DNA of 64,000 nt from Acutalibacteraceae bacterium (GTDB taxonomy: Bacteria > Bacillota > Clostridia > Oscillospirales > Acutalibacteraceae). Made by a program: the position numbers and the translations under genes. This document shows positions 33,677 through 46,371 of the stretch, one piece after another; the first letter of the stretch is position 1, and every line of letters starts with the position of its first letter. A model generated the notes under the pieces. That model was not told the origin of the DNA and ran no database searches. It saw nothing but the letters and a program-made list of their open reading frames with translations. Location: assembly GCA_045595725.1 (NCBI GenBank), contig JAZOAY010000007.1, positions 595 through 64,594 of the forward strand. Reading direction: 5' to 3'.

Positions 33677-34357
33677 TCAGTCAAATATGTAAGCGAGAAC
33701 TTCTTGAGAAAGGTCGGATGAATATGCTCTTATGGGACCGTGCTGATATTTTCCGTCTTTGAAGAAGAAAATTGTGTTGTCCAATCCGTGGGAATTTTTG
33801 TCAAGAACAATAAGCAGTCTTTCAAAGTTATATTCATTCAGAGTGTGACCCCTGAAACCACTCAGAACCTGCATGTCATTATAATAAATTTCAATGCAGA
33901 GGTTTTCATTTTTTATTTCTTCTATATAACCTTCCTCAATAGCAAGCTTTAAAATACCCCATTTGTCATTCTTGGTGGATTTGTTGATTATTTTTATCAC
34001 CTCATCACACATCACATTGTCCTTGGCGATGGTCTGTGGCTTTCCGTTGTGGTAAAAAATTATCTGCTCAGGCTTATAAAGGAAGTTTATTGAACCATCA
34101 GGGTGACAGGTTGTTGATACTCTTGTGGGATCGGAAACAGGGTCAGTCGGCACATCTGTTTTTTCCGTTTCCGGAATAACACATGGAGGTTCGGTTGTTG
34201 CTTCTTTTTCTGTTTTCTTTTCTGCGGTGGGTTCTTGTGCAGTTGTTTTGTTCTGAACAGTAGGCTTGTCAATCCGGCTTTCGTTTCTGTTACACGCAGA
34301 AAATAAAACTGTACTCATGAGTAATGCAAAAGCTATCATTAGGATTTTTTTATTCAT
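33677..34357 (-). CDS. lipoprotein, function unknown
   Basis: AGGAGG RBS. MNKKILMIAFALLMSTVLFSAC lipobox and a T/E/P-rich linker. Confidence 0.65.
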   Translation of the reverse strand: MNKKILMIAFALLMSTVLFSACNRNESRIDKPTVQNKTTAQEPTAEKKTEKEATTEPPCVIPETEKTDVPTDPVSDPTRVSTTCHPDGSINFLYKPEQIIFYHNGKPQTIAKDNVMCDEVIKIINKSTKNDKWGILKLAIEEGYIEEIKNENLCIEIYYNDMQVLSGFRGHTLNEYNFERLLIVLDKNSHGLDNTIFFFKDGKYQHGPIRAYSSDLSQEVLAYIFD

Positions 34358-34370
34358 AAAAATACCTCCT

Positions 34371-35204
34371 TTAACAGATAGTTTTTGCAATTCTCACCGC
34401 CTCTTCATAGTCAGAATGAAAAACTATTCTGTAGTTTAAATTATTTTTTCTGTATGTAATTTCAGATGAATTGTTTTTGCTTTCAACTGAAACTGACAGA
34501 CCGTTTACATTGATAACATTATTTTCTTTTATGCTTTCTGAAGATTTTTCTATTGTAATATTATAGATTTTTTCTTTTGAGCTGATTTCAATTTCTGCTA
34601 TGCTTTTTGCAGAGCTTCTGTTAAGTATTTTCCCGTTTTCAAAAACAATTACAGGTAAAAGTAAATTGTCAAATCCGTTTTCAGCAAGAAACTTTCTTAT
34701 GCTGTTTTCAATATTTTCTTCCGGAGAAAGAGTGTGACTGCCTTTTAATTCTTCGGAAATTTTTGTTGTTTCGTTTCCCTTTGTTGAAGGTGCGGGTTTT
34801 GTTTCTGTGGGAATGCTGTCAGTTTTGTCAGGCATTGTTGTTGAGGGAGATGTGGTAGTTTTGATGATGTGGACGGTAGGTGCTGTTATGTTATCGGTAG
34901 GTTTCATTTCGGGCTTGCTGCTTGTGAGACCGGGGAATACAGCAGTCATTGCAAAAACAAGCACTGCGGCTGTTGCGATAAGCAATGCCACATTTGAAAA
35001 AGATCTTTTTTTCGGCTTAGAGTTTTTATTTTCATGTTTTTCGCTGAGTGCATCGAGACAGAGCTCGATTAACTCGGTGTCCATATCCTCTTCCGATTTT
35101 GCCAGTTCAGTTTCCATAATTTTCTCAATTTCTTCTTTTGAAAAACTGAAACTGTTATCTTTGAGAAGTTCCGCTATATGAGAACTTTTTATCACAGTAA
35201 TCAT
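34371..35204 (-). CDS. single-pass membrane protein, candidate anti-sigma factor
   Basis: It lies directly downstream of the sigma factor gene. Acidic N-terminal cytoplasmic segment, TM VALLIATAAVLVFAMTAVF and an extracytoplasmic domain. Confidence 0.5.
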   Translation of the reverse strand: MITVIKSSHIAELLKDNSFSFSKEEIEKIMETELAKSEEDMDTELIELCLDALSEKHENKNSKPKKRSFSNVALLIATAAVLVFAMTAVFPGLTSSKPEMKPTDNITAPTVHIIKTTTSPSTTMPDKTDSIPTETKPAPSTKGNETTKISEELKGSHTLSPEENIENSIRKFLAENGFDNLLLPVIVFENGKILNRSSAKSIAEIEISSKEKIYNITIEKSSESIKENNVINVNGLSVSVESKNNSSEITYRKNNLNYRIVFHSDYEEAVRIAKTIC

Positions 35205-35238
35205 CCTTCATTTATATAGTCTGAATTTTTTTAAAATG

Positions 35239-35748
35239 TTACGAAGTAAATTTTTTAATTTCTTTTATAATTTTATGCTTTAATCTGAAAACCTGTTGTC
35301 TTAGAGCGTTTTCGGAAATATTCAGTTCACTTGCAATGTCTTTCTGTTTTATTTTTTTAATATAAAAATCTTCAATAAGCTTTCTTTCACTGTCTGTCAG
35401 CGAGGTGAGAATCTTGTTTGCATATTTATCAATTTCTTCATCTGAAACGGGAAGTTCAAATTCAACTGTTGCGGTAACGCTGTTTTCCTCAAAGGGGACA
35501 ATGTTTGCTTTGCTTTTTTCCTCTGTCTTGTATATGTCATTAATTTTATTGAGAGCAATTTTTGTCAGATAAGCTTTTGGATAATCAATCTTTTTTGAAT
35601 CCATCAATGCCCTGAGCAGTGCGAGAAAAACCTCCTGCATGCAGTCGTCGATCAAGTCAGGTGTACTTTTCAGTTTATATTCGCAGAATTTTCTTATGTA
35701 TGACTGGTGTTCTAACCAGATTTTTTCAGCTTGTTTTATAGGTTCCAA
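35239..35748 (-). CDS. sigma-70 family (ECF-type) RNA polymerase sigma factor
   Basis: Region 2-like DLIDDCMQEVFLALL and region 4 HTH KQKDIASELNISENALRQQVFRLKHKI. Confidence 0.8.
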   Translation of the reverse strand: MEPIKQAEKIWLEHQSYIRKFCEYKLKSTPDLIDDCMQEVFLALLRALMDSKKIDYPKAYLTKIALNKINDIYKTEEKSKANIVPFEENSVTATVEFELPVSDEEIDKYANKILTSLTDSERKLIEDFYIKKIKQKDIASELNISENALRQQVFRLKHKIIKEIKKFTS

Positions 35749-35892
35749 AAGTTTTCACCTCTCTGACAAAAAAGCTAAGATTATTTTAATAATAACTGTT
35801 TTTCTGAAAAAGTCAACTGCAATCGTCAAAATTTATGTCAATACCAGTATTTCAGTAAAGTCCCGAAAATGTCTCTTTACCCACCTTCATGT

Positions 35893-35921
35893 TTGAAAAA
35901 CAGAAAAATCTCGTCTACACT
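35893..35921 (+). promoter_or_regulatory. candidate promoter (TTGAAA, 17 nt spacer, TACACT)
   Basis: Found by eye: TTGAAA at 35893-35898 and TACACT at 35916-35921. Confidence 0.4.
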
Positions 35922-35933
35922 AAAAAACGTAAA

Positions 35934-35947
35934 CGAACATTTGTTCG
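35934..35947. promoter_or_regulatory. near-consensus Firmicutes LexA (Cheo) box
   Basis: CGAACATTTGTTCG, against the B. subtilis consensus CGAACATATGTTCG. It lies about 12 nt downstream of the candidate -10 element and 31 nt before the TTG start at 35978. Confidence 0.6.
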
Positions 35948-35977
35948 GTTACAAAAACGGAAAGGAGAAATAAAAAT

Positions 35978-36598
35978 TTGACAAAAAAACCTGTAAGTTT
36001 ATCACATTTTTCTTCAGAGGAGTTACTGACTGCTGCAGGACAGTTTAACACTCTTTATGACAAAGAGATTGAAACACCGGCTGAGTACATTCACCGTAAA
36101 CGTGAACGTGATATGAGAAAGGTTATCGCCTTTGTGATGGAAAATGAACTTGACAAAACAAAACATGAAATTTTCACAAAAGTATTTTTTGGCGGTGAAA
36201 AAATTTCCGATATCGCAGAAAAGATGGGCATTACTCCCTCAGGTGTTTATAAGCACTATGAAAATGCATTCAGAATTATCGGAGAAAGCCTTAAATACGT
36301 AAATTTTTATCAGAACGTCAGTAAGCATGACAGAATGAAAACGCTGGAAAGCATGAAAAACAATGCACTTTCTGCTTTTAAAGAATTGTCTTATCCCGCT
36401 GTTACCATGCGTCTTTCGAGACTTATGGAAAGGGAGAATATAAGAACGGAAATGCTTTGCCGTTCGTTGGGTTTTGATAAAAAACATTTGGAAGAAATTT
36501 TTTGCGGAAAAATTCATCCGTGTACAGATGAAATTGTTTTGCTTGCAGGTTTTTTCGGAGTTTCTACAGATTACATTTTAAAGGGGGATTTGTCTTGA
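35978..36598 (+). CDS. dual-HTH regulator (sigma-70 region-4-like HTH plus C-terminal XRE-like HTH)
   Basis: FFGGEKISDIAEKMGITPSGVYKHYENAFRII, then LCRSLGFDKKHLEEIFCGKIHP...LLAGFFGVSTDYILKG. TTG start after AAAGGAG. Confidence 0.6.
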   Translation: MTKKPVSLSHFSSEELLTAAGQFNTLYDKEIETPAEYIHRKRERDMRKVIAFVMENELDKTKHEIFTKVFFGGEKISDIAEKMGITPSGVYKHYENAFRIIGESLKYVNFYQNVSKHDRMKTLESMKNNALSAFKELSYPAVTMRLSRLMERENIRTEMLCRSLGFDKKHLEEIFCGKIHPCTDEIVLLAGFFGVSTDYILKGDLS

Positions 36599-36810
36599 TA
36601 AAAACACTTAAAGAACTCGGCGAGGAATATGTTGAAGAAATTGAACTGCTTGATGAAAAAATCGAAAGATACCGTAACAGACTGAAAAAGGCTTTTGAAG
36701 AATGTAACAGTGATGAGATTTTTACAGTTCAAAGACTTTTGCGTGTTTTTTACGGACAAAGATGTGAAATGATGGAAACTGCACGTAAACTTCTTTATTA
36801 TTACTCCTGA
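36595..36810 (+). CDS. small helical protein, translationally coupled to the regulator
   Basis: TTG start overlaps the upstream stop. AAGGGGGA RBS. 71 aa, coiled-coil-like. Confidence 0.5.
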   Translation: MIKTLKELGEEYVEEIELLDEKIERYRNRLKKAFEECNSDEIFTVQRLLRVFYGQRCEMMETARKLLYYYS

Positions 36811-36827
36811 GGCGGAAAGGAAAAATA

Positions 36828-38588
36828 ATGACAGAGTTATTTATAACAATGAATTCTTCGGGCACTTTTACCATGCCGCCAAGTATGGGAAGAATTGAAG
36901 AATACTGTGCAAGGACACTAAGAATTGCACTTAATGCTGATTTTCTGTCATCATCAATCAGTTACTACACTTTAAGCTTTGAACCTTATTCGTTATCAAG
37001 AAAAATCATAACAGAAAATATTTACAGAGATTCTTCAACTTCCGAAGGCATTTATTATGCTGACGGATGTATTTTTTGTCCTGTTTATGATTATATCGCA
37101 GTTTCACCGGTTGTTTCAGTTCAAATAGATGCATATGAAACAGATTCGTTGGGAAATGTTACAGCCATTATAAAATCCGGTATTTTCAATCTGGAATTTG
37201 CACCGTCTCTCACAGGTGAAGGAATGAAGCTCCAGACCGTGAGACCTGATGTAAAGTTTTATGAAAATGTAAAAAATGCTGTTGATAAAGCAATGGAAAC
37301 ATTAACAATAAGCGGTGAAAAAATTGACAGTTATTCAATTACAGGACGCAAAATAGGGCTTAATGCGGTTGGTACACCGCATTTGCAGGATTCGGCAGTA
37401 ACTGCGGTGAAGATAAAAAACGGAGCTGTAAAAACCGAGTGTGTGTCGGATGAATGCATAACAAAAGAAAAATTAGCGAAAGTAAGTGTCACAGAGGAAA
37501 AAATAGTAGAAAACGCAGTTACAACAGATAAAATTGCTGATAAAAATGTCACATCGGTAAAGCTTGCAGATGGTTCTGTTACTAATGTAAAACTTGCAAC
37601 ATATAGCGTCAGTGAAGAAAAAATCAGGCCTTTTGCTGTTACAACATCAAAACTCGACAACGGTGCGGTTACACCTGCAAAACTCGACAGGGAGTATATT
37701 ACTCATCATCAGAGTCTGGAAGGTTACGCTACGGAAAATTGGGTAAAAGAACAGAATTATCTTACAAAAGATGAAACCCTTGATGTTTATGCAACGGAAG
37801 ATTGGGTGAAGGAGCAGAAATATCTGACAGAACACCAGAGCCTTTTCGGATACGCTACAGAAGATTGGGTATACGAGCAGAATTATCTTTCTTCAACCGA
37901 GGGACTTGCAACTGAAGATTGGGTTAAAAAGCAGGAGTATCTTACAGAACATCAAAGTCTTGAGGGCTATGCCACGGAAGAATGGACAAGAGAGCAGAAT
38001 TATCTTAAAGAACATCAGAGCCTTGAGGGCTATGCAACTGAGCAGTGGGTTGAAAGTAAAGGATATCTTACCTCAGATGACGACTTTCTCAAAGATGTGG
38101 ATTTGCCTGAGAAACTCAGCGAATTGGAAAATGACGTTGCTGTTTCTTACAATACTCAGACTCTTACCGAGGAACAGAAGCAAATTGCAAGAGAAAACAT
38201 CGGTGCAGTAAAGAGTGAAGAAGGTAAAGTTCTTTCAAGTAATGATTTTACGGATGAAGATAAAGAAAAACTTGATGCTTCGCTTACGGAGCATCAGGAT
38301 ATTTCAATGAAAGCCGATGTGTCTTCGCTGGCAACAGTGGCTTTTTCCGGTTCATATAAAGACCTTTCTGATTTGCCTGAAAATAATTTTATTACGAACG
38401 AATTTAAAGCAAATTACGATAAGGCATATGAGCATGCTGTTTCCGAACATGCGCCGTCTGAAGCAGAAGAAAATGTTATCGAAAGCATAACCGTAAACGG
38501 AAACCCTGCAGAGGTAAACGAAAAAAATGTTTCTCTTTGTATTATTGGTTTTGATAAAAAAGAAACAGTATTTATGGAGGTGTTTTAA
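36828..38588 (+). CDS. phage tail-fibre / receptor-binding-like protein with two internal repeat arrays
   Basis: About ten 10-aa repeats of the V-T-x-x-K-L/I type, then about six YATEDWVKEQNYLTEHQSLEG-type repeats. No signal peptide. Confidence 0.7.
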   Translation: MTELFITMNSSGTFTMPPSMGRIEEYCARTLRIALNADFLSSSISYYTLSFEPYSLSRKIITENIYRDSSTSEGIYYADGCIFCPVYDYIAVSPVVSVQIDAYETDSLGNVTAIIKSGIFNLEFAPSLTGEGMKLQTVRPDVKFYENVKNAVDKAMETLTISGEKIDSYSITGRKIGLNAVGTPHLQDSAVTAVKIKNGAVKTECVSDECITKEKLAKVSVTEEKIVENAVTTDKIADKNVTSVKLADGSVTNVKLATYSVSEEKIRPFAVTTSKLDNGAVTPAKLDREYITHHQSLEGYATENWVKEQNYLTKDETLDVYATEDWVKEQKYLTEHQSLFGYATEDWVYEQNYLSSTEGLATEDWVKKQEYLTEHQSLEGYATEEWTREQNYLKEHQSLEGYATEQWVESKGYLTSDDDFLKDVDLPEKLSELENDVAVSYNTQTLTEEQKQIARENIGAVKSEEGKVLSSNDFTDEDKEKLDASLTEHQDISMKADVSSLATVAFSGSYKDLSDLPENNFITNEFKANYDKAYEHAVSEHAPSEAEENVIESITVNGNPAEVNEKNVSLCIIGFDKKETVFMEVF

Positions 38589-40150
38589 TGCTTATATATA
38601 CTTTAAATGATGACGGACTGTCTTATTCTGCGGCAGAGGAGACAGATGCTTCCGTTACAAGAGTTGAAGTTCCTGATACATATAACGGATTACCTGTAAC
38701 TGAAATCTCGGCAATTTTTAATCACTGCAGTAACCTTGAAGAAATCATTGCAGGTCACAACGTCAGGGACATCTGTCATGGAAGTCTTGATTTCCCGTCT
38801 CTTAAACGCCTGTATTTGGGAAAAGGAATTGAAAAGATTAACGGTCCGCTGAATGAATCGGGAAACTTCACCGATATTTTTTACAGCGGAACAGAAGATG
38901 AATGGCAGAATGTGCGTTGGTTCTTTGTGGATGACCAGGAAACCGTTATAGGAAAGATAAACAAACATTTCGGTATTCTCGGTAAAAGTGTAATTCTCTC
39001 TTTCGATGAAGAAAAGCTTTTTCCATATACCCATTGGGATTGTATTAAGGGTAAACCTGAAGCAATCAATTCGGAAAAAGTTTCATACGAAAACAGTATA
39101 AGCGGTCTTGAAGCAAATAATGTTAAAGATGCAATTGATAAACTTAATGCCAAGCACTTCGATGCAACGGCACTTTCTTCATGGAAGGAATTACTTCATC
39201 TTGTGCGTTCGGGAAAAGCGCATGATTTTATAAAGATAGGTGACCAATTGGTTTCTGTGAAAGACGGTAAAGAACTTGTGTGGGATGTTATCGGGATTGA
39301 TGCTGATGTGCCTGTTGAAGAAAAGCATAAACATTCTGTTACACTCCAGCTCAGAGATTGTTACATTGTTATGCCGTTTTCTGTTCCTGAGGCTTCATAT
39401 TTTTCGGTAACAAGGCTTGCGCCGGGGCAGTATTATCTGAAAATGAATAACTATTCTTCTGCATCTAAGTATTACGCTTTTACTCTTGATGAAGAACTTC
39501 CTTTAGGCGGTCTGATAAGAATCAGCCAGAATAAGGTTTATCTTTACAGAACGAAAACTGAAAATTATTACAAATCTTTTGATGTTGATTTATCGTCAGA
39601 AAATGAGGAAGACATGAGCGGTACGCTACTTGAACAGGAAAACTATCATATTCATACAGATATGGGTAATGTGAATTATGAACAGTCTGATATAAGAAAG
39701 TGGCTCAATTCGGCAGAGGTCGACTGGTGGTATCACAGTAACGGTCGTTCTCTGGCACCGTTGGATTATTTATCAATTCCCGGTTTCTGTAAGGATATGG
39801 ATGAAGATTTTCTTAGTGCCATAAATCCTGTTAAAAAGAAAACTGTTAATGCAGAGGGAACGGAAGTTATAACGGAAGATAAATTCTTTCTTTTATCTGC
39901 AGAAGAAGTGTACGCTCGTAGTGGTAATTGGTATGAATATTATCAAGAGAATTCTTCACTTTCATCATCGGGAGTAACAGAAGACAGCGCAAGAATTAAA
40001 ATGTATGAGGCCGCACCATGCACTTGGGTTTTGAGAACGACTTCAGGAGACAGAGGTTACATGAGAGTTCTTACTAACGGTAGTGTATCCTATGTAAAAG
40101 CAGCGAAAGTAAACACTTTTGGTATTGCACCGGCTTGTTGTATTTGTTAA
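38588..40150 (+). CDS. phage-associated protein with BspA-type LRR N-terminus and a DUF6273-like C-terminus
   Basis: FNHCSNLEEI / LKRLYLGKGIEKI LRR-like N-terminus. C-terminal DKFFLLSAEEVY and CTWVLRTTSG motifs. Confidence 0.55.
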   Translation: MLIYTLNDDGLSYSAAEETDASVTRVEVPDTYNGLPVTEISAIFNHCSNLEEIIAGHNVRDICHGSLDFPSLKRLYLGKGIEKINGPLNESGNFTDIFYSGTEDEWQNVRWFFVDDQETVIGKINKHFGILGKSVILSFDEEKLFPYTHWDCIKGKPEAINSEKVSYENSISGLEANNVKDAIDKLNAKHFDATALSSWKELLHLVRSGKAHDFIKIGDQLVSVKDGKELVWDVIGIDADVPVEEKHKHSVTLQLRDCYIVMPFSVPEASYFSVTRLAPGQYYLKMNNYSSASKYYAFTLDEELPLGGLIRISQNKVYLYRTKTENYYKSFDVDLSSENEEDMSGTLLEQENYHIHTDMGNVNYEQSDIRKWLNSAEVDWWYHSNGRSLAPLDYLSIPGFCKDMDEDFLSAINPVKKKTVNAEGTEVITEDKFFLLSAEEVYARSGNWYEYYQENSSLSSSGVTEDSARIKMYEAAPCTWVLRTTSGDRGYMRVLTNGSVSYVKAAKVNTFGIAPACCIC

Positions 40151-40161
40151 AGGAGGTTTTT

Positions 40162-40311
40162 ATGTTAAAGGTTAAAACGGTTTTACAGCAACTTATTGAT
40201 GAGAGAAAGAAAAATGCTTTTCTTTTAATGAAACTTGAAAAAATATTGTCCGATATTGATTACGTTGCCATGATGTGTGATGTTGAACTTGAGGAGGATA
40301 AGAATGAGTAA
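40162..40311 (+). CDS. small phage-module protein (49 aa)
   Basis: AGGAGG RBS at 40151-40156. MLKVKTVLQQLIDERKKNAFLLMKLEKILSDIDYVAMMCDVELEEDKNE. Below the ORF-track cut-off. Confidence 0.5.
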   Translation: MLKVKTVLQQLIDERKKNAFLLMKLEKILSDIDYVAMMCDVELEEDKNE

Positions 40312-40444
40312 AAAATACGGTAAAGTAAAAGAGTACTATGAAAAAGGTTTGTGGAATGAGGACAGAGTAGCAAATGCCGTCCTCAAAGGTTGGATTACGA
40401 TAGAGGAATTCAGAGAAATTACGGGGGCAAGGTATGATATTTAA
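40304..40444 (+). CDS. xkdX: XkdX-family phage protein
   Basis: MSKKYGKVKEYYEKGLWNEDRVANAVLKGWITIEEFREITGARYDI matches the XkdX pattern YY.KG.W...V...V.KG.IT.EEF..ITG. It overlaps the previous ORF by 8 nt. Confidence 0.75.
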   Translation: MSKKYGKVKEYYEKGLWNEDRVANAVLKGWITIEEFREITGARYDI

Positions 40445-40507
40445 TCTTATGAAAATAACTTCGCTTTACGCAGCATTCTTTTATTTTCTTCTGATGGGAG
40501 CATTTGC

Positions 40508-40807
40508 ATGACGGAGTGGCAGACGGGAATAATCTGTACTTTGGCAGGTCTTGTGATGTCTTTTGTTTTTTCTTTGCTTACACACAGACGTAATGAAAAA
40601 AACGACCTTAAAAATGCAGGTGAAATGCGAGGTGTTCTGCAATCTGATGTGGGTTACATAAAAGCAGGTGTTGATGATCTGAAAAGAGAAAACAAGGCAA
40701 CAAATCTGAAAATTGATACTGTTTCGGAAAGAGTAACGCGTGTCGAAGAAAGTTGCAAACAGGCTCACAAAAGAATTGATGAACTGAAAGAAAATGAATA
40801 CATGTAA
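40508..40807 (+). CDS. N-terminally anchored coiled-coil membrane protein (holin or lysis-accessory candidate, BhlA/UviB-like topology)
   Basis: TM GIICTLAGLVMSFVFSLL followed by a heptad-rich tail. It occupies the position between XkdX and the endolysin. Confidence 0.45.
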   Translation: MTEWQTGIICTLAGLVMSFVFSLLTHRRNEKNDLKNAGEMRGVLQSDVGYIKAGVDDLKRENKATNLKIDTVSERVTRVEESCKQAHKRIDELKENEYM

Positions 40808-40819
40808 GGAGAAAGCAAA

Positions 40820-41179
40820 ATGAAAATAATTGAATTTTTAATTACAAACTGGAGTGATGTTACACTTGTCATTTCTGTTTTGTTTATTATAATTTACTCA
40901 TCCTTTACTAACAGAATTGACTATCTTAGAGCAGAACTTTTTTCTCTTGTTACAGAAGCTGAAAAAATTTATGGCGGAAAAACAGGTCAGACGAAACTCA
41001 TGTATGTTGTCAGAAAAATTTATTCAAGGATGCCTGTGGCTCTGAAACTTTTTCTCAGCGAAAAGCAACTGGAAAAAATCATTGAAAATGTTCTTGTAAA
41101 GGCAAAAAAATCATGGAGTGAAAATAAAAAAGTTCTGATAGAAGGTGAAGCTGCCGATGGTGAAAACTTATTCGTTTAA
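40820..41179 (+). CDS. small membrane protein (holin candidate)
   Basis: N-terminal TM VTLVISVLFIIIYSSF. It lies immediately upstream of, and overlaps, the endolysin gene. Confidence 0.4.
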   Translation: MKIIEFLITNWSDVTLVISVLFIIIYSSFTNRIDYLRAELFSLVTEAEKIYGGKTGQTKLMYVVRKIYSRMPVALKLFLSEKQLEKIIENVLVKAKKSWSENKKVLIEGEAADGENLFV

Positions 41180-41795
41180 AAAAGACGGAGACAAAAGACT
41201 CTCTGAAAATTTCAGAGTAAAAGAATTCAGAAGTCGTGATGGTGCTGATAAAATTCTTATAGATGAAAATCTCGTAAAACTTCTTCAGAAAATGCGTGAT
41301 AAATTCGGTGAAATAATAATTTCATCTGCATACAGAACTGCCTCTTACAACAGAAAAGTAGGCGGTGTTTCAAACTCACAACATCTTTACGGACTTGCTG
41401 CTGATGTTACAATCAAGGATAAAAGAAAACTTCTTGAAGCGGCACAGTATGCAGAAAAAATCGGTTTTAAAGGTGTGGGTCTTGATGACAAATATCAGAA
41501 CTTTCTTCATCTGGATACAAGAAAGAACAAGTCTTTTTTCAGATACAGAGCAAACGGTTCAACCTATTCTGTTTCTTCATTTTTTACAACATTGAAAATC
41601 GGCTCGAAAGGTGATGAAGTAAAACTTCTTCAGAAAAAGTTGAACAAACTCGGATTTACAGATGCTTCGGGAAAAGAATTAGTTACAGATGGAATTTTCG
41701 GTAAAAACACAGAATATGCACTTAAAAAGTTTCAGAAAAAAATGAGTCTTGTGACAGATGGTATTGCAGGACCGAAAACATGGCGTAAATTATAA
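41157..41795 (+). CDS. endolysin: peptidase M15 catalytic domain plus PG_binding_1 domain
   Basis: SAYRTASYNRKVGGVSNSQHLYGLAADV (H-x6-D zinc site) and the C-terminal motif GSKGDEVKLLQKKLNKLGF...DGIFGKNTEYALKKFQ...DGIAGPKTW. Confidence 0.85.
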   Translation: MVKTYSFKKDGDKRLSENFRVKEFRSRDGADKILIDENLVKLLQKMRDKFGEIIISSAYRTASYNRKVGGVSNSQHLYGLAADVTIKDKRKLLEAAQYAEKIGFKGVGLDDKYQNFLHLDTRKNKSFFRYRANGSTYSVSSFFTTLKIGSKGDEVKLLQKKLNKLGFTDASGKELVTDGIFGKNTEYALKKFQKKMSLVTDGIAGPKTWRKL

Positions 41796-42078
41796 TTTTC
41801 AACGAAAAATACCCTCCGTCAAAATCCAAGATTTTGCCACCTCCCCTTGCATTTTCAAGGGGAGGCTGAAACCGAAGGAAACAGATAAATTATAATTTGT
41901 CTGTGCATTTATGGTAAGCCTTGCCTCCATCTGATGAGAGAGGTGGATTTTGCGAAGCAAAAGACGGAGGGAGAGAAAACAAGGTTTAACTACCCCTCAG
42001 TCAGCCTTACGGCTGACAGCTCCCCTGACAAGTGGAGCCAACTGTTACAGTTAGTTTCAGCAAGATAAATTATAATTT
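41786..42078. repeat. nested palindromic GC-rich element(s) delimited by three copies of TAAATTATAATTT
   Basis: Core copies at 41786-41798, 41886-41898 and 42066-42078. An imperfect palindrome of about 160 bp (41812-41971) is centred on copy 2, with arms CCCTCCGTC/GACGGAGGG, CCACCTC/GAGGTGG and GGAGGC/GCCTCC. Confidence 0.6.
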
Positions 42079-42085
42079 ACTTCAG

Positions 42086-42121
42086 ATCGGAAACGTAATT
42101 GTGCGTTTCCGATTTTTTTTA
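42086..42121 (+). terminator. intrinsic terminator (probably the original terminator of the lysis operon)
   Basis: ATCGGAAACG-TAATTGTG-CGTTTCCGAT followed by T8. Confidence 0.8.
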
Positions 42122-42195
42122 TTAAAACTATTGCATTTGAGATGAAGAATCTGTTACAATGAATTTGATTAAAAGTATAAAAACGAGGTGTTTTT

Positions 42196-43827
42196 ATGAA
42201 AAAATTAATTTCAATTTTCTTGTGTGCATTAATTGCATTTTCCTGCATGGCAATTTCTGTTTCAGCAGAAAGTTTTGCTCCGACCTATTATATTGACAGC
42301 GTAGGTGGTGACGATGCAAACACAGGTCTCAGTGAAGACAGCGCATGGAAAACAATAAACCATGGAGAATGGGTTTTTATTCCGGGTACAAAAGTACTTT
42401 TTAAACGTGGCGGTGTTTATGAACTGGAAGTGACCCTTACTGTTTCAGGCACTAAAGAAAATCCCATTGTGATTTCATCTTACGGTGATGAAAATGAGGA
42501 TAAACCTGTTCTCAGAACCGACAGTCACAATGAAGTTTTTGATTTTGTCGACTGTGATTACGTTACAGTTTCGGACCTTGCAATTACTGCTCCCAACGGT
42601 GGAGGTATCTGGATAAGAGGGCTTAACAAACAGTCAAACGGAATGACAATTGAAAATGTTGATTTCTATGATATGCAGAATTATGACCGTCATGTACGTG
42701 ACCCGTTCGGCTCAGGTGCTGCAGATGCACGTGCGGCAATTATCACAAACGGTCTTTGGGGACCTGACGGTTATTACCGTAATACGGTTAACGACCTTAC
42801 AATTAAAAACTGTAGCGTAGAAAATTGTGCAAACGGATTTATTATCTGGGGCATTCCCAAGGGTAATCCTGCTGAAAATCCAGGACATTATGAAGGCGTA
42901 TATAACAGAGGCGTACTTATTGACGGTTGTTATTTCAACAATATGTATGCTGAAGCAGTAGTACTCGGCGTGTGTGACGGAGGTGTTGTCACCAACTGTA
43001 CTTCACTTAATACATGTCTCGGCGGTCAGGAACCTTTACCGGACGGAGGGGTTGAATATTTCACAGCTTCAATGTGGTTCTGGGGATGCAAAAACTGTGT
43101 TATTGAACATTCAGAAATCGCAGGTCAGAGAAACTTCGGTGACGGCATGACAGTTGACTTTGACTCTGATTCAAATTATTGCACATATCAGTATGTCTAC
43201 TCACACGATAATATGAGATTTGTGTGTAACAATGCAATCGGAGGCAGACCTCAGGCGGGTAATACTGTTCGTTATTGCCTTTCCGTAAATGATAACCTTG
43301 GCAGAAACAGTCTTGCCAGCGGTTCAGGTGAAGTTGAATTCAGTTTTTATAACAACACTATTGTAAACGCTCAGGAATTACATACCGTAAATGTTGAAAG
43401 CGGTATTGTTGCAAATAACATTTTCACTTTTATGCCGGGTTATTACGTTTACTACAATGACCGTAATCTTAATGCAAAAACTGATTTCACAAACAACTGT
43501 TATTATATGGCACCTAACCCTCCCTTTGATTTGCTTTCAATGAATACAAGACCTGATTTTGCAGGTGACGACATGACTGATGTGAACAGTTTTAAACTTA
43601 TAAAAGGTTCTAAACTTATCGGTGGCGGTATAGAAAGAGACGACATCGAAAAAATGGAATACGATTTCTTCGGTGAAAAGGTTACTTCAACAAATATCGG
43701 ATGTTACGGCGGTGATGGTGTTGAGGGTGAACTTGACAGATACGATATCATTGACATAATGGTTGATGTGTTCAGATTCTTCGGTGGTTTATGGTCAAGA
43801 GTTCTTGACGGAAGTTTATTTAACTGA
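42196..43827 (+). CDS. secreted right-handed parallel beta-helix (pectin-lyase-fold) protein
   Basis: Signal peptide MKKLISIFLCALIAFSCMAISVSA. Repeated N/G-x-x-I/V beta-helix rungs (IKNCSVENCANGFIIWG and others). Confidence 0.7.
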   Translation: MKKLISIFLCALIAFSCMAISVSAESFAPTYYIDSVGGDDANTGLSEDSAWKTINHGEWVFIPGTKVLFKRGGVYELEVTLTVSGTKENPIVISSYGDENEDKPVLRTDSHNEVFDFVDCDYVTVSDLAITAPNGGGIWIRGLNKQSNGMTIENVDFYDMQNYDRHVRDPFGSGAADARAAIITNGLWGPDGYYRNTVNDLTIKNCSVENCANGFIIWGIPKGNPAENPGHYEGVYNRGVLIDGCYFNNMYAEAVVLGVCDGGVVTNCTSLNTCLGGQEPLPDGGVEYFTASMWFWGCKNCVIEHSEIAGQRNFGDGMTVDFDSDSNYCTYQYVYSHDNMRFVCNNAIGGRPQAGNTVRYCLSVNDNLGRNSLASGSGEVEFSFYNNTIVNAQELHTVNVESGIVANNIFTFMPGYYVYYNDRNLNAKTDFTNNCYYMAPNPPFDLLSMNTRPDFAGDDMTDVNSFKLIKGSKLIGGGIERDDIEKMEYDFFGEKVTSTNIGCYGGDGVEGELDRYDIIDIMVDVFRFFGGLWSRVLDGSLFN

Positions 43828-43840
43828 GAGGTGTTCTGAT

Positions 43841-44938
43841 ATGGCAGCAAAAGAGCAAAGAACTTACAAAAGTTTCTGGGAATGGGACGAAAAATCAAAA
43901 CAGAAGGAGTATACAGAAAAAACTCCGCTTCTTGGTAATGACGGCACACTCCTTGCAAAAGGTTGGGCGAGAAGAAATGTTTTTGATTATGACAGAACAA
44001 AGTCAACTCCGGGAAACAGAAAAAAAGAATGGGATTTCTATCAACTTTCCAACGGCAAATTTATGGTGCAGATAAGTTTTGCAAACATCTCAATCGGTGG
44101 TTATGTTTCTGCAAAACTTGTGGACCTGAGAAACAAAAAAGTGATTGTGGATGCAATGTCTCCTTTCCTTGGCGGCAAAAAATATGTGCCTAATCCCAAG
44201 GGTGATGTTCCCAACAATTTCAAAGCGAAAATCGGTGGTGCCGAGTTTGAGTTTGATACAAAAGAAACAGAAAGAACTCTGTATTTCAAAATGAATGCCA
44301 AAGGCAAGGATGTTGTGTGCAAATTCCACATGGATATTATGCCGGGACTTGAAAACATTACAACGGTTCTTCCTTTCAAAGGTTATCCTACAAAGTATTT
44401 CATGACAACGAAGCAGATGTGTATGCCCTGCAGTGGTACGTTTGAATACGGTGATGAAATTTATAATTTCAGTAAGGAGGACACATTTGCATCTCTTGAC
44501 TGGGGCAGAGTAAATACACCTTACAGAATGGTTTGGTATTGGGGTAGCGGTTCAACATATCTTGTCGATGAAAACGGTGAAAAGCACCTTTTCGGATTTG
44601 AAATAACATGGGGTATCGGTGATGAATCAAATGCAACGGAAACTTGTCTTTTCTATGACGGAAAAGCACACAAATTCGGTGCAATTGACGTTGAAACTTT
44701 CCCGAAACCCGATAAATACATGCAACCATGGAAGTTTATTTCAGAGGACGGCAGATTTAATCTGACGATGGAACCTTTTTATGACCATCATTCAGACCTG
44801 AACGTTGCAAATCTTGCACGTATGCATTCACATCAGGTTCACGGTCTGTGGAGTGGTGACGTTACTCTTGATGACGGAACAAAACTTGAAATCAAGGATA
44901 TGTACGCTTTCTGCGAATATGTAGAAAATAAATGGTAA
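43841..44938 (+). CDS. DUF2804 domain protein (copy 1)
   Basis: MAAKEQRTYKSFWEWDEKSKQKEYTEKTPLL...GWARRNVFDYDR... A GAGAGGTG RBS lies 14 nt after the upstream stop. Paralogue of 58318..59424. Confidence 0.7.
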   Translation: MAAKEQRTYKSFWEWDEKSKQKEYTEKTPLLGNDGTLLAKGWARRNVFDYDRTKSTPGNRKKEWDFYQLSNGKFMVQISFANISIGGYVSAKLVDLRNKKVIVDAMSPFLGGKKYVPNPKGDVPNNFKAKIGGAEFEFDTKETERTLYFKMNAKGKDVVCKFHMDIMPGLENITTVLPFKGYPTKYFMTTKQMCMPCSGTFEYGDEIYNFSKEDTFASLDWGRVNTPYRMVWYWGSGSTYLVDENGEKHLFGFEITWGIGDESNATETCLFYDGKAHKFGAIDVETFPKPDKYMQPWKFISEDGRFNLTMEPFYDHHSDLNVANLARMHSHQVHGLWSGDVTLDDGTKLEIKDMYAFCEYVENKW

Positions 44939-44975: not shown

Positions 44976-45440
44976 TTATTCTTTTTTCTTTTTACTGAAT
45001 ACCACAAGTTTTGAAAAGAAGTAGTTAAGCACCACAACGATAACTGCAAGGAGAATTTTTGAAATCATTTTTCCGCCGAGAACAAAACCGAAAATGTCGA
45101 GTTGGTACTTGTCAAATCCGAGTAAATCAATCAGTGCAAAAAGTCCTGCTTCTTCAATGACTAAAGAAAAAACTCTTGCTGCAAAGAATGAAAAAATTTC
45201 TTTGCATATTTTTTTTGTCTGCCATGTGCGGCTTTCAAAAACAAAAAGCTTGTTTGTAATGTACGCAAAAACAACTGAAACAAACCATGCAATAATGTTT
45301 GAAATAAGATAACGTTCTTCACTTAAAACAACATTGAAAAATTTAAATGCAGCAAAATTTACAAGAGTTGTTAATGCGCCAAAGAATACATACAGAATAA
45401 GTTCTTTGTATTTAATAAACAAATCATGAATTTTCTTCAT
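44976..45440 (-). CDS. GtrA-family membrane protein
   Basis: 154 aa, 4 TM. YVFFGALTTLVNFAAF and NKLFVF motifs. Confidence 0.8.
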   Translation of the reverse strand: MKKIHDLFIKYKELILYVFFGALTTLVNFAAFKFFNVVLSEERYLISNIIAWFVSVVFAYITNKLFVFESRTWQTKKICKEIFSFFAARVFSLVIEEAGLFALIDLLGFDKYQLDIFGFVLGGKMISKILLAVIVVVLNYFFSKLVVFSKKKKE

Positions 45441-46371
45441 AGGTTAAAATCTCTTTCGCTATATAAATAGGTCTGTTTTTGACCTGAGTGTGGATTTTGC
45501 CGATGTAAATTCCCATAAAACCAAGGAAAACACAAAGTATTGCAAAAAGTAAAAGCACAAGGCAAGCAATGAAACCGAGACCGCAGTTTTTATTAAATCC
45601 AAGTTCGGCAACAAGAAAACAAATAAAAAGAAGCACATCAAAAATTCCCAAGCCGATACCGAAATAAAGAGGTAATTTCAGAGGAAGGTCGGTATAAGCC
45701 ATGATGCCGTCAAAAGCATATTTAAGCAGCTTCTTAAATGACCATTTCGTTTCTCCGCTTTCTCTCTCCATAACTTCGTAGGGAATAGAATATGTGTTGA
45801 AACCAATCCAAGAAAAAATGCCTTTTGAGAAACGGTGGTATTCAGCCAGAGAAATAATAGTTTCAACAACATTTCTTCTCATTGTTCTGAAATCACTTGC
45901 ATCTTCAATAAGATTTACTTCACTTACCTTGTTGATGACAGAGTAAAAGCTTGTTTTTATTTTGCTGAGAAGTGCAGAATCTTTTCTCTTTTCCTGAAAA
46001 GCGGCAACCATGTCATACTGAGAATTTTCGTCAAGGATTTTACCCATCTGAACAGCAACCTCAGGGCGCTGTTGCATGTCCGCATCAATAATTGTGGTGT
46101 ATTCACCCTTTGAGGCTTTAAGTCCTGCATACATTGCAGCTTCTTTACCGAAATTTCTTGAGAAATTTATTATTTTGATTTTAACATCTTTGTTGTTTTC
46201 AAAGATTTTTCTTAAATTTTCACTTGTTTTGTCACGGCTTCCGTCGTTAACAAAAATAAGTTCAAAATTATCTGTGTATCCCTTCATTGCTTCTCTCGCA
46301 GCATTAAAAAATATTTCAACATTGCCTTCTTCATTGAAGCAGGGGATAACCAGAGAGTGTTTTACAGACAT
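45424..46371 (-). CDS. family 2 glycosyltransferase (GtrB / polyprenyl-phosphate glycosyltransferase type) with two C-terminal TM segments
   Basis: SLVIPCFNEE, VNDGSRD and IDADMQ (DxD) motifs. It overlaps the gtrA-like gene. Confidence 0.85.
   Translation of the reverse strand: MSVKHSLVIPCFNEEGNVEIFFNAAREAMKGYTDNFELIFVNDGSRDKTSENLRKIFENNKDVKIKIINFSRNFGKEAAMYAGLKASKGEYTTIIDADMQQRPEVAVQMGKILDENSQYDMVAAFQEKRKDSALLSKIKTSFYSVINKVSEVNLIEDASDFRTMRRNVVETIISLAEYHRFSKGIFSWIGFNTYSIPYEVMERESGETKWSFKKLLKYAFDGIMAYTDLPLKLPLYFGIGLGIFDVLLFICFLVAELGFNKNCGLGFIACLVLLLFAILCVFLGFMGIYIGKIHTQVKNRPIYIAKEILTYEENS

Follow-up and report, generated by a model that had tools for sequence, protein, structure and literature searches.

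Within a 64-kb stretch of the genome of an uncultured Acutalibacteraceae (Clostridia) bacterium, which as a whole we call the window, a block of ten genes at positions 35978-41795 (+) brings together a regulator pair, two large receptor-binding-type proteins and a phage-type lysis cassette behind a promoter with an exact LexA-type box. Our preferred reading, to which we give a probability of roughly 0.6, is that the block is an SOS-derepressed, phage-derived lysis/release operon that would liberate the two receptor-binding-type proteins, neither of which has a signal peptide. Judged from sequence, the operon is probably repressed by the LexA of its host, and it looks like a chromosomally fixed, working host system and not a decaying prophage. 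Domesticated phage lysis modules for damage-induced release are known; what appears to be new is this block and the regulator family at its head, and our literature search found no description of either.

Layout and gene content of the block

The ten genes lie on the same strand and are tightly packed, with overlaps or tiny gaps between them. The features and the gene names used below are as follows (HTH, helix-turn-helix; LRR, leucine-rich repeat; ORF, open reading frame).

35893..35921 (+): promoter-like site, TTGAAA (-35), 17 nt, TACACT (-10), from a consensus scan
35934..35947 (+): LexA-type (Cheo) box CGAACATTTGTTCG, an exact match that starts 13 nt 3' of the -10 element
35978..36598 (+): g1, 206-aa regulator with a TTG start, sigma-70 region-4-like HTH plus XRE/P22-C2-like HTH
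36595..36810 (+): g2, 71-aa helical protein, overlapping g1 by 4 nt
36828..38588 (+): g3, 586-aa fibre-like protein, with PHROG tail-fibre matches
38588..40150 (+): g4, 520-aa LRR/DUF6273 protein, from Pfam, AlphaFold2 (AF2) and Foldseek
40162..40311 (+): g5, 49-aa ORF paired with XkdX, given from its likely true start
40304..40444 (+): g6, XkdX family, 46 aa from the ATG (PF09693, 58.9 bits against a cut-off of 23.5)
40434..40511 (+): 25-aa hydrophobic mini-ORF MIFNLMKITSLYAAFFYFLLMGAFA, with an ATG conserved in 13 of 13 loci
40508..40807 (+): g7, 99-aa XhlA-like protein, N-terminal transmembrane segment plus coiled coil
40820..41179 (+): g8, 119-aa putative holin with one N-terminal transmembrane segment
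41145..41795 (+): g9, endolysin, Peptidase_M15_3 plus PG_binding_1, with a possible true start at the ATG of 41157

An annotation made earlier from the letters alone (the original prediction) had described a promoter, a near-consensus SOS box just downstream of it and nine genes. Promoter and box were found where it had placed them, the box as an exact match, and all nine ORFs exist with annotations that hold; the tenth, the conserved 25-aa ORF, had been missed. Pfam matches and the gene overlap bear out its dual-HTH regulator with a coupled 71-aa helical protein, and g4 is LRR/DUF6273-like as described (DUF6273 in Pfam, TpLRR in Foldseek). The N-termini of g3 and g4 are not hydrophobic, in line with the claim that the large proteins have no signal peptide. 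The 49-aa ORF and XkdX are both present, but with starts revised to 40162 and 40304. The two membrane proteins described as N-anchored, g7 and g8, have one N-terminal transmembrane segment each, and the M15/PG-binding endolysin is recovered by Pfam at 76.9 and 65.7 bits.

Pfam scans of essentially all window ORFs of at least 120 aa, together with PHROGs, returned no capsid, portal, terminase, tape measure, tube/sheath, replication gene or integrase in the 64-kb window, which is what the original prediction had said of virion genes. Window ORFs outside the block are of host type only, comprising FeoB, ChrA, GH5, an extracytoplasmic function (ECF) sigma factor, DUF2804, GtrA/GT2 and TrmA-like genes as well as SpoIIR, IspE-like, YqfD, PhoH, YbeY, Era, RecO, MutS2 and capsule genes. 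No att-like direct repeats were found around the block, no tRNA lies near it (the window's sole tRNAs sit far off), no compositional break was seen at it, and Rfam gave no match on 35000-42500. The flanks of the related loci, up to 10 kb in length, are likewise free of virion genes.

Conservation, synteny and selection

We surveyed gene neighbourhoods and scanned one genome per GTDB species for the block. It is intact in 12 further species-level metagenome-assembled genomes (MAGs) or GTDB representatives and in metagenome contigs; the carrier MAGs go under Acutalibacteraceae, Oscillospiraceae, Eubacteriales or Clostridia, and the names of two of them suggest deer rectum as the source. All genes are present, intact and in the same order in every locus long enough to tell. 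The flanking host genes are constant, with GH5/ECF sigma to the left and beta-helix/DUF2804 to the right, except in one lineage (L006/L016; L numbers denote the loci and contigs that were compared) that has a different left flank and whose right flank ends with the contig. Among the related loci examined, the block never lies inside a prophage in syntenic species, and the survey of related genomes that had been proposed alongside the original prediction found it always stand-alone, with intact ORFs under purifying selection. The refuting pattern named there, in which the block is the tail of a full prophage in syntenic strains and is decaying in this one, was not seen. A metagenome scan for empty sites using the beta-helix host gene returned one 2.3-kb fragment, which was uninformative.

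Ratios of nonsynonymous to synonymous divergence (dN/dS, Nei-Gojobori) were 0.03-0.31 for all nine named genes, pairs with unsaturated dS included; by gene they were 0.11-0.27 for g1, 0.03-0.21 for g2, 0.07-0.19 for g3 and 0.09-0.25 for g4. Protein identity across loci is 88-91% for GH5, 76-84% for the beta-helix protein and 82-93% for DUF2804 in the flanks, and 47-82% for g1, 48-63% for g3, 48-70% for g4, 68-97% for g7 and 67-82% for g9 within the block; dN is 3-6 times as high for g3 and g4 as for the flanking host genes. As block divergence tracks that of the flanks (Spearman 0.36-0.60) and recovers the same clades, a mainly vertical history with accelerated evolution is indicated, and not repeated insertion.

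As a side observation, dS of g1, g3 and g4 is often 1.4-2.6, compared with 0.6-1.3 for adjacent host genes in the same genome pairs (L001-L018). Allelic exchange between lineages, older alleles under diversifying selection or weaker codon bias could each account for these raised values.

Given this record, it is scarcely credible that the block is an inert prophage 3'-end remnant that has not yet decayed. Such a remnant would account for the phage relatives that g4-g9 all have, and for an order (fibre, XkdX, holin, endolysin) that is the order of phage late operons. However, the ten ORFs are intact in 13 of 13 lineages where the contig reaches, even as g3/g4 have diverged to 48-70% identity; ORF lengths are fixed at 206, 71, ~520 and 99 aa; dN/dS values lie in the low range given above; and promoter and operator are invariant. 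The original prediction had left two options, and the first, a decayed prophage 3' end, is contradicted by the intact copies in 12 further species, by purifying selection and by the lack of virion genes, integrase and att sites. The second, a domesticated and damage-inducible release system, stands at the sequence level in that the block is domesticated and intact with a conserved box, while LexA binding, induction and release are steps that we infer.

The promoter and its LexA-type box

The pattern CGAACN4GTTCG has a single exact match in the 64 kb, at 35934-35947, against 0.01 expected per window; this expectation comes from dinucleotide-preserving shuffles, 1 in 100 of which held any exact match. 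Since the same pattern with one mismatch is not significant (1.07 expected per window), we place the weight on the exact match and its conservation. The box covers the likely transcript start. Across 13 distinct loci, the -35 element TTGAAAA, the -10 element CTACACT, the box GAACATTTGTTCG and the TTG start are invariant, with the base before GAACATTTGTTCG being C in 12 loci and A in one; the promoter spacer and the bases flanking the box vary across the same loci, so that promoter and box read as a clean phylogenetic footprint. The LexA operator consensus for Bacillus and Clostridium is GAACN4GTT[CT] (CGAACN4GTTCG) (PMC4234289), and the box of the window is an exact fit to this Firmicutes pattern that adjoins the promoter and is kept in orthologous promoters. 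A scan of IMG/VR for the promoter-plus-box pattern yielded five unrelated matches, apparently in coding sequence and with no module proteins nearby; the combination was not found before any phage structural cluster in that scan.

The regulator pair and its wider family

In g1, the region-4-like HTH spans aa ~30-105, with a Sigma70_r4_2 match at aa 56-97 (27.4 bits against a Pfam cut-off of 25.7), and the XRE/P22-C2-like HTH spans aa 145-204. Where it aligns with ECF sigma models, the match is confined to their C-terminal third (positions 88-162 of 162), and Pfam and profile comparison found no sigma region 2 in it. We considered and rejected an assignment of g1 to the group-5 sigma factors (TcdR/UviA/BotR/TetR), given that region 2 is missing and that an XRE HTH makes up its C-terminal half. 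PDB sequence searches with g1 and its profile gave generic HTH matches only (TetR family, P22 C2), g2 matched nothing in PDB or Pfam, and synonymous-site conservation gave no signal of a promoter embedded in g2. The 34 orthologue clusters of g1 are nearly all exactly 206 aa long. A tblastn search of 50,697 GenBank phages with g1 returned no match, and distant members of its family match phages solely via the generic XRE domain.

The g1 profile recovers from uncultured Clostridia a wider family of proteins of ~200-215 aa that share its two-domain layout (129 representatives at E <=1e-10). We compared the neighbourhoods of eight lineages of this family, one of them the clade of the window. All but one have a stand-alone peptidoglycan hydrolase (M15, Amidase_3 or GH25) led by the g1 homologue, and six of these seven lineages have a holin (LLH-like, Holin_SPP1 or Phage_holin_5_2) along with the hydrolase; all of these modules lie among host genes. 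The position of g2 is usually taken by an ORF of 78-94 aa, which is 32-45% identical to g2 in L031, L032 and L033. Gene orders outside the window clade are as follows.

L031: g1 homologue, small ORF, then Amidase_3, a 66-aa protein and Holin_SPP1
L032/L037: the same start, then a g3-N-terminus-like protein of 425 aa, LRR_5 of 442 aa, a 63-aa protein, M15 endolysin, XhlA-like protein and Holin_SPP1
L033: g1 homologue, small ORF, then a g3-like protein of 482 aa (35% identity), a g4-LRR-like protein of 402 aa, a 109-aa protein, a holin-like protein of 116 aa (43% to g8) and M15 endolysin (58%)
L039: g1 homologue, no small ORF, then GH25 plus LysM, a 111-aa protein and Phage_holin_5_2
L040: g1 homologue, small ORF, then a DUF6273 protein (opposite strand), a 327-aa protein, Amidase_3 and Holin_SPP1
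L041: g1 homologue, small ORF, then GH25 and a 309-aa protein, with no holin annotated
L035: regulator and small ORF only, without a hydrolase

LexA-type boxes are found at the promoters of seven of the eight lineages, which outside the window clade are L031, L033, L035, L039, L040 and L041. In L031, L040 and L041 they occupy the -35/-10 spacer, and otherwise they sit just 3' of the promoter or a short way before the start codon; L031 reads TTGACA-ATCGAACAAGTGTTCGT-TATAAT, with the box within the spacer, and L040 and L041 have two boxes apiece. The half-sites are constant as GAAC/GTT[CT], while the central 4 nt, the box position and the regulator sequence (28-34% identity where aligned) change. 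The association of the g1 family with lysis genes and LexA-type boxes is a recurrent one. The sole lineage without a box, L032/L037, carries a divergent gene for an HTH_3 plus Peptidase_S24 repressor, and L031 has both box and S24 repressor. On these comparisons we think it likely that the box serves as an operator for the LexA of the host and that the g1 family is defined by SOS control.

One may postulate instead that the palindrome is an operator of g1 itself or of another regulator and that the operon is not damage-inducible. A protein with two HTH domains, such as g1, could autoregulate, and palindromes of this kind can serve other dimeric repressors. The half-sites nevertheless match the Firmicutes LexA consensus exactly; GAAC/GTT[CT] is kept alongside g1 homologues that are only 28-34% identical, while the central 4 nt differ and the box shifts with respect to the promoter; and the g1 homologue of L032/L037 occurs without the box and with a self-cleaving-type S24 repressor in its stead. 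We consider this alternative improbable.

Several further features of these upstream regions were noted. The HTH_3 plus Peptidase_S24 (CI/LexA-like) gene lies divergent to the g1-like gene at L031 9235-9825 (-), L032 4413-5006 (-) and L037 3191-3784 (-), and the intergenic regions of L031 and L032 have in common a motif, TATTATGA[AG]CTATTCTATTAAA, that is absent from the window. Terminator-like hairpins followed by a T-run lie between promoter and start codon in the leaders of the L032, L037 and L039 g1-like genes, ~130-30 nt upstream of 5230 in L032, likewise upstream of 4006 in L037, and ~85-60 nt upstream of 9001 in L039 (for example AAAACCGCTTTTAGCGGTTTTTTT in L039 and CCCGTTTTTTATGGGGGTGGGTCTTATTTTTTTTT in L032); the window's leader has none. 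These leaders suggest a layer of attenuation or antitermination in the three loci.

Genes for surface glycopolymers also recur nearby. Glyphos_transf genes, which we take to be of teichoic-acid type, adjoin the g1-led lysis modules of L039 (12105-15116), L040 (7844-8980) and L041 (11763-13962), and in the window GtrA and a GT2 glycosyltransferase lie ~3 kb from the block (44976-46371). Such neighbours may hint at what the receptor-binding-type cargo recognises.

The make-up of the family bears on a further alternative, in which lysis itself is the function: an SOS-triggered altruistic suicide that would abort prophage induction or infection, or release DNA or nutrients, with the fibres as accessories, for example decoys set free to mask receptors on sibling cells. 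The family core consists of SOS box, regulator, hydrolase and usually holin, with cargo in some lineages only; the cargo descends from phages of this host group, so it probably recognises the hosts' own surface; and several modules adjoin surface-glycopolymer genes, as just described. On the other side, no PADLOC defence model matched the block beyond one weak match in a repeat region, and g3 and g4 are intact under purifying selection in every species of the window clade, where the cargo is evidently not dispensable. We regard this alternative as unlikely, while giving it some weight.

The fibre-like protein g3

We aligned 33 orthologues of g3 (430-637 aa). The protein has a conserved N-terminal beta-sandwich (aa 1-~140), an array of ~11-residue repeats, an array of 21-residue HQSLEGYATEDWVKEQNYLTE repeats whose copy number varies among orthologues, and a conserved C-terminal part. 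Both of the repeat arrays that the original prediction described are visible in the protein alignment, but only one of them in the DNA. PHROG tail-fibre matches (E 1e-25) arise via the repeat region (aa 144-302). About 50 homologues of 430-637 aa were found, most of them full-length and differing mainly in repeat number.

The N-terminal domain is the most conserved part of g3. The AF2 model reaches a predicted local distance difference test score (pLDDT) of ~75 there; elsewhere it is poor (pLDDT 55), as expected of a trimeric fibre, and was not interpreted. With this model, Foldseek found in PDB the baseplate of TP901-1 (4v96_AA, E 9e-5), whose 299-aa chain is presumably BppU, and that of phage NF5, at TM-scores of 0.29-0.50. 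At the sequence level the domain had no match in 50,697 GenBank phages, 2.9 million IMG/VR contigs or PHROGs; it is recognisable in L033 and L032. No Dit gene is present at the locus.

The fold of this domain is one motive for asking whether the block could be the fibre-and-lysis arm of a split, domesticated particle, tailocin-like or resembling a gene transfer agent (GTA), whose head and tail genes lie elsewhere in the genome. There is a parallel in the Rhodobacter GTA RcGTA, in which fibre and lysis genes are apart from the main structural cluster. The beta-sandwich, the most conserved part of g3, has its best fold matches in siphophage baseplate proteins, and domains of this kind dock onto the baseplate in phages; g1/g2 have no obvious target inside a single operon, so could act on remote loci; and outside such blocks the pair of XkdX and its partner ORF occurs in true tail modules. 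Against this, neither the 64-kb window nor the flanks of related loci (up to 10 kb) hold a virion gene, the N-terminal domain is absent from the phage collections searched, some family members have lysis genes but no fibres, and the promoter/box combination was not found before any phage structural cluster. Taken together, we consider a split particle quite unlikely.

The LRR/DUF6273 protein g4 and its pairing with g3

Pfam recognises DUF6273 in g4 at 63.5 bits against a cut-off of 23.5. The AF2 model (mean pLDDT 76) consists of an N-terminal BspA/TpLRR-type LRR, for which Foldseek found TpLRR in PDB, a disordered linker and a C-terminal DUF6273 domain (C-type-lectin-like), the fold of which matches DUF6273 proteins of gut sipho-, podo- and myoviruses (Foldseek against BFVD, E 4.5e-20, TM 0.45). 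There are 36 full-length homologues (504-535 aa, 45-70% identity), and an exact-sequence look-up of g4 found nothing on record.

Distant relatives occur in phage contigs at 24-35% identity, mostly over ~aa 175-520, and g4, g5 and g6 are of phage ancestry. In L021, a temperate siphophage contig, a g4-like gene follows tape-measure, Dit-like and Tal-like genes and precedes Avd, lysis genes with an endolysin, and an integrase. DUF6273 is a C-type-lectin-like domain that is hypermutated by diversity-generating retroelements (DGRs) in phage receptor-binding proteins (PMC10743442, PMC11792537). The gene for Avd, a DGR accessory protein, lies directly 3' of the g4-like DUF6273 gene in L021 (9599-11368), which indicates that phage relatives of g4 are targets of hypermutation. 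Pfam scans found no DGR parts (reverse transcriptase, Avd) among the window ORFs.

A g3-like and an LRR protein stand side by side in all three g3-bearing lineages (the window clade, L032/L037 and L033), and the C-terminal parts of g3/g4 differ and are swapped between lineages. As far as can be read from these arrangements, they look like a receptor-binding complex of two components in which the parts for assembly are conserved and those for binding vary.

The g5-XkdX pair and the lysis cassette

The phage contigs L020 and L027 have the same g5-XkdX pair after a g4-like gene (47-57% identity). In the window, the mini-ORF overlaps both neighbours, the end of XkdX with its ATG and the ATG of g7 with its TGA; it is in frame in 13 of 13 loci, with a pooled dN/dS of 0.11-0.15 and a Kyte-Doolittle (KD) maximum of 1.76, and the 25-aa peptide may be a holin partner or an antiholin-type peptide. 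g7 matches phrog_1863 (E 3e-22), with weak XhlA and spanin matches, and its transmembrane segment covers aa 8-24 (KD 2.45); a related motif occurs in a small protein before Holin_SPP1 in L032. g8 matches phrog_15303, a group of unknown function, at E 7e-20; holin PHROGs match weakly (E ~1e-3) and no Pfam holin does. Its transmembrane segment covers aa 14-30 (KD 2.28), it is 43% identical to its L033 equivalent, and its place beside the endolysin is conserved. g9 combines Peptidase_M15_3 and PG_binding_1, matches a PHROG endolysin at E 2e-37 and is 67-82% identical across loci.

Comparison with known systems

In function the block comes nearest to the systems that release proteins by holin and endolysin (PMC9527704) and to SOS-induced tailocins. 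One clostridial parallel is the UV-inducible bacteriocin system UviA/UviB/Bcn5 of C. perfringens pIP404, which likewise has a regulator, signal-less cargo, a holin (putative in the block) and an endolysin in one locus, with damage-inducible release proposed for both (PMC9527704). UviA, however, is a complete group-5 sigma factor, whereas g1 joins no more than a region-4-like HTH to an XRE HTH; Bcn5 is a bacteriocin of enzyme-like type, as opposed to the two phage receptor-binding-type proteins of the block; and the holin families differ. The TcdR and UviA precedents cited by the original prediction hold as functional analogies, but not for the regulator, as g1 is without sigma region 2.

TcdR/TcdE/TcdL in the pathogenicity locus (PaLoc) of C. 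difficile and the type 10 secretion systems (T10SS; Serratia ChiWXYZ, Yersinia entomophaga) share with the block, on its proposed reading, the use of a domesticated phage holin and a (remnant) endolysin for the release of large signal-less proteins, and we count production in a sacrificed or specialised subpopulation as a further likeness. Their cargo consists of toxins or chitinases, none of phage-fibre type, and they have no LexA box; TcdL is a fragment, whereas the endolysin of the block is whole and includes a domain for cell-wall binding.

Like the block on its proposed reading, tailocins (R/F-type pyocins with PrtR/PrtN, monocins, diffocins, PBSX) are domesticated, chromosome-fixed phage modules that DNA damage induces, with regulators of their own, fibres that evolve fast and lysis genes at the end. 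The layout of L031/L032, an S24 repressor and then a regulator, parallels PrtR/PrtN of pyocins, and the order of XkdX, XhlA-like protein, putative holin and lysin parallels PBSX. What defines tailocins, nonetheless, is a tube (sheathed or not) together with a tape measure and a baseplate, none of which occurs in the window or in the flanks of relatives of up to 10 kb. Because g1 has no region 2, no tube, sheath, tape-measure or baseplate gene is present and the cargo is of receptor-binding type and not a toxin or enzyme, the block is not a member of the UviA, TcdR, T10SS or tailocin groups.

The cargo has its own parallels. PblA/PblB of Streptococcus mitis phage SM1 are signal-less tail/fibre proteins that exit only via holin and lysin, and they then bind cell walls and act as adhesins (PMC2920869); SM1, however, is a complete inducible prophage in which PblA/PblB are also virion parts, while the block has no virion and is vertically inherited. 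In its modelled fold, the g3 N-terminus resembles baseplate proteins of the TP901-1 BppU/BppL periphery, and the C-terminal DUF6273 of g4 resembles DGR-diversified DUF6273 proteins of Faecalibacterium and other gut phages, relatives of which follow tape-measure, Dit-like and Tal-like genes (PMC10743442, PMC11792537). Compared with siphophage baseplates, the block has no Dit, Tal or tape measure to dock onto; compared with DGR systems, it has no reverse transcriptase, Avd or template repeat near g4; and g4 has an N-terminal LRR, whereas its phage relatives match it from ~aa 100-220 onward only.

Proposed mechanism and origin

On our preferred reading, the block would derive from the distal end of a temperate siphophage late operon, fused behind a dedicated regulator pair, with the packaging, head, tail and integration genes all lost. 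DNA damage would lead to RecA-stimulated cleavage of LexA and free the promoter at 35893-35921. A single transcript would then specify g1/g2, a DNA-binding protein with region-4-like and XRE domains and its small helical partner; two cytoplasmic receptor-binding-type proteins, the g3 fibre with its BppU-like N-terminus and g4 with its LRR and lectin-like DUF6273; and g5/XkdX with a membrane and lysis set made up of the 25-aa peptide, XhlA-like g7, holin-like g8 and the M15 endolysin. Holin and endolysin would breach the envelope of the producer, and the freed g3 and g4 would bind surface glycans or proteins of other cells. Candidate roles for the cargo are bacteriocin-like targeting, PblA/PblB-like adhesion and receptor masking.

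This interpretation must be weighed against several points that speak against it. Receptor-binding-like cargo is optional in the g1 family, being absent from L031 and L039; the conserved core is regulator plus lysis cassette, and fibre release may therefore not be the primary function. The BppU-like fold modelled for the g3 N-terminus, which in phages serves baseplate docking, hints at a conserved partner outside the block. g1/g2 have no evident need to act as activators of their own operon; a commitment or timing circuit, or control of remote genes, are possibilities. The identity of g8 as a putative holin comes from weak matches to hidden Markov models (HMMs) and from topology, and Pfam scans found no SOS gene among the ORFs of the window or the related loci.

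A broader reading, which we put forward tentatively and hold to be well short of even odds, is that the block is the best-preserved member of an undescribed class of clostridial SOS modules in which LexA- or S24-controlled g1/g2 drive a domesticated lysis cassette that is, in several lineages, armed with cargo. The tail-less complexes of g3 fibre and LRR/lectin protein would in such a class be set free by altruistic lysis and act alone on neighbours; as roles for them, a particle-free 'fibre bacteriocin', a kin-recognition or adhesion factor and a receptor-masking decoy are conceivable with the same reserve.

Surroundings of the block

To the left, on the other strand, lies the host-type ECF-sigma operon that the original prediction had placed there, at 33677-35748 (-). 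It consists of the sigma factor and proteins of 277 aa and 237 aa, both without a Pfam match, and it evolves very fast across L001-L018 (29-89% identity, dN/dS up to 0.5). Several block-bearing species lack it or have a single gene of 264-310 aa in its place, and a functional tie between the block and this divergent operon was rejected on account of its absence from several block-bearing loci.

To the right, the theme of a beta-helix protein with DUF2804 occurs twice in the window, at 42196-44938 (+) and at 54099-56240 (+)/58318-59424 (-). The first pair is directly right of the block, and one of its members is called a beta-helix protein on a weak Beta_helix match of the orthologue from L001. 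To judge by homologues of 360-375 aa, the first DUF2804 ORF probably begins downstream of its listed TTG (43763). The second set lies ~10 kb further right, near capsule and O-antigen-ligase-like genes.

The gap 3' of the endolysin is 400 nt in the window, compared with 71-177 nt in most related loci. It contains a 196-nt segment, 41883-42078 (+), bounded by two exact copies of AGATAAATTATAATTT, the core of which, AAATTATAATTT, is palindromic; a partial further copy of the AGATAAATTATAATTT motif is at ~41787. The segment folds at -68 kcal/mol (z -5.6 against shuffles); candidate interpretations are a small inserted element and a structured 3' untranslated region or small RNA. It ends just before the strongest intrinsic-terminator-like hairpin downstream of the operon:

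42084..42115 (+): terminator-like hairpin, 14-bp stem then T-run

Implications

If the preferred reading is right, the block would represent a new route of phage domestication, in which receptor-binding proteins and lysis machinery are kept and wired to the host SOS response, and no particle is made. The regulator family, with its region-4-like and XRE domains, its length of ~205 aa and its small partner, would then mark SOS-triggered lysis cassettes in uncultured Clostridia of gut and rumen. Known inducers of the SOS response include fluoroquinolones, mitomycin and oxidants produced in inflammation; exposure to them would burst these abundant commensals and shed lectin/LRR proteins, with effects on population dynamics, on phage-host interactions and possibly on host-glycan binding. 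The fast-evolving g3/g4 pairs would, in addition, be a natural library of narrow-specificity binders for Oscillospirales surfaces.

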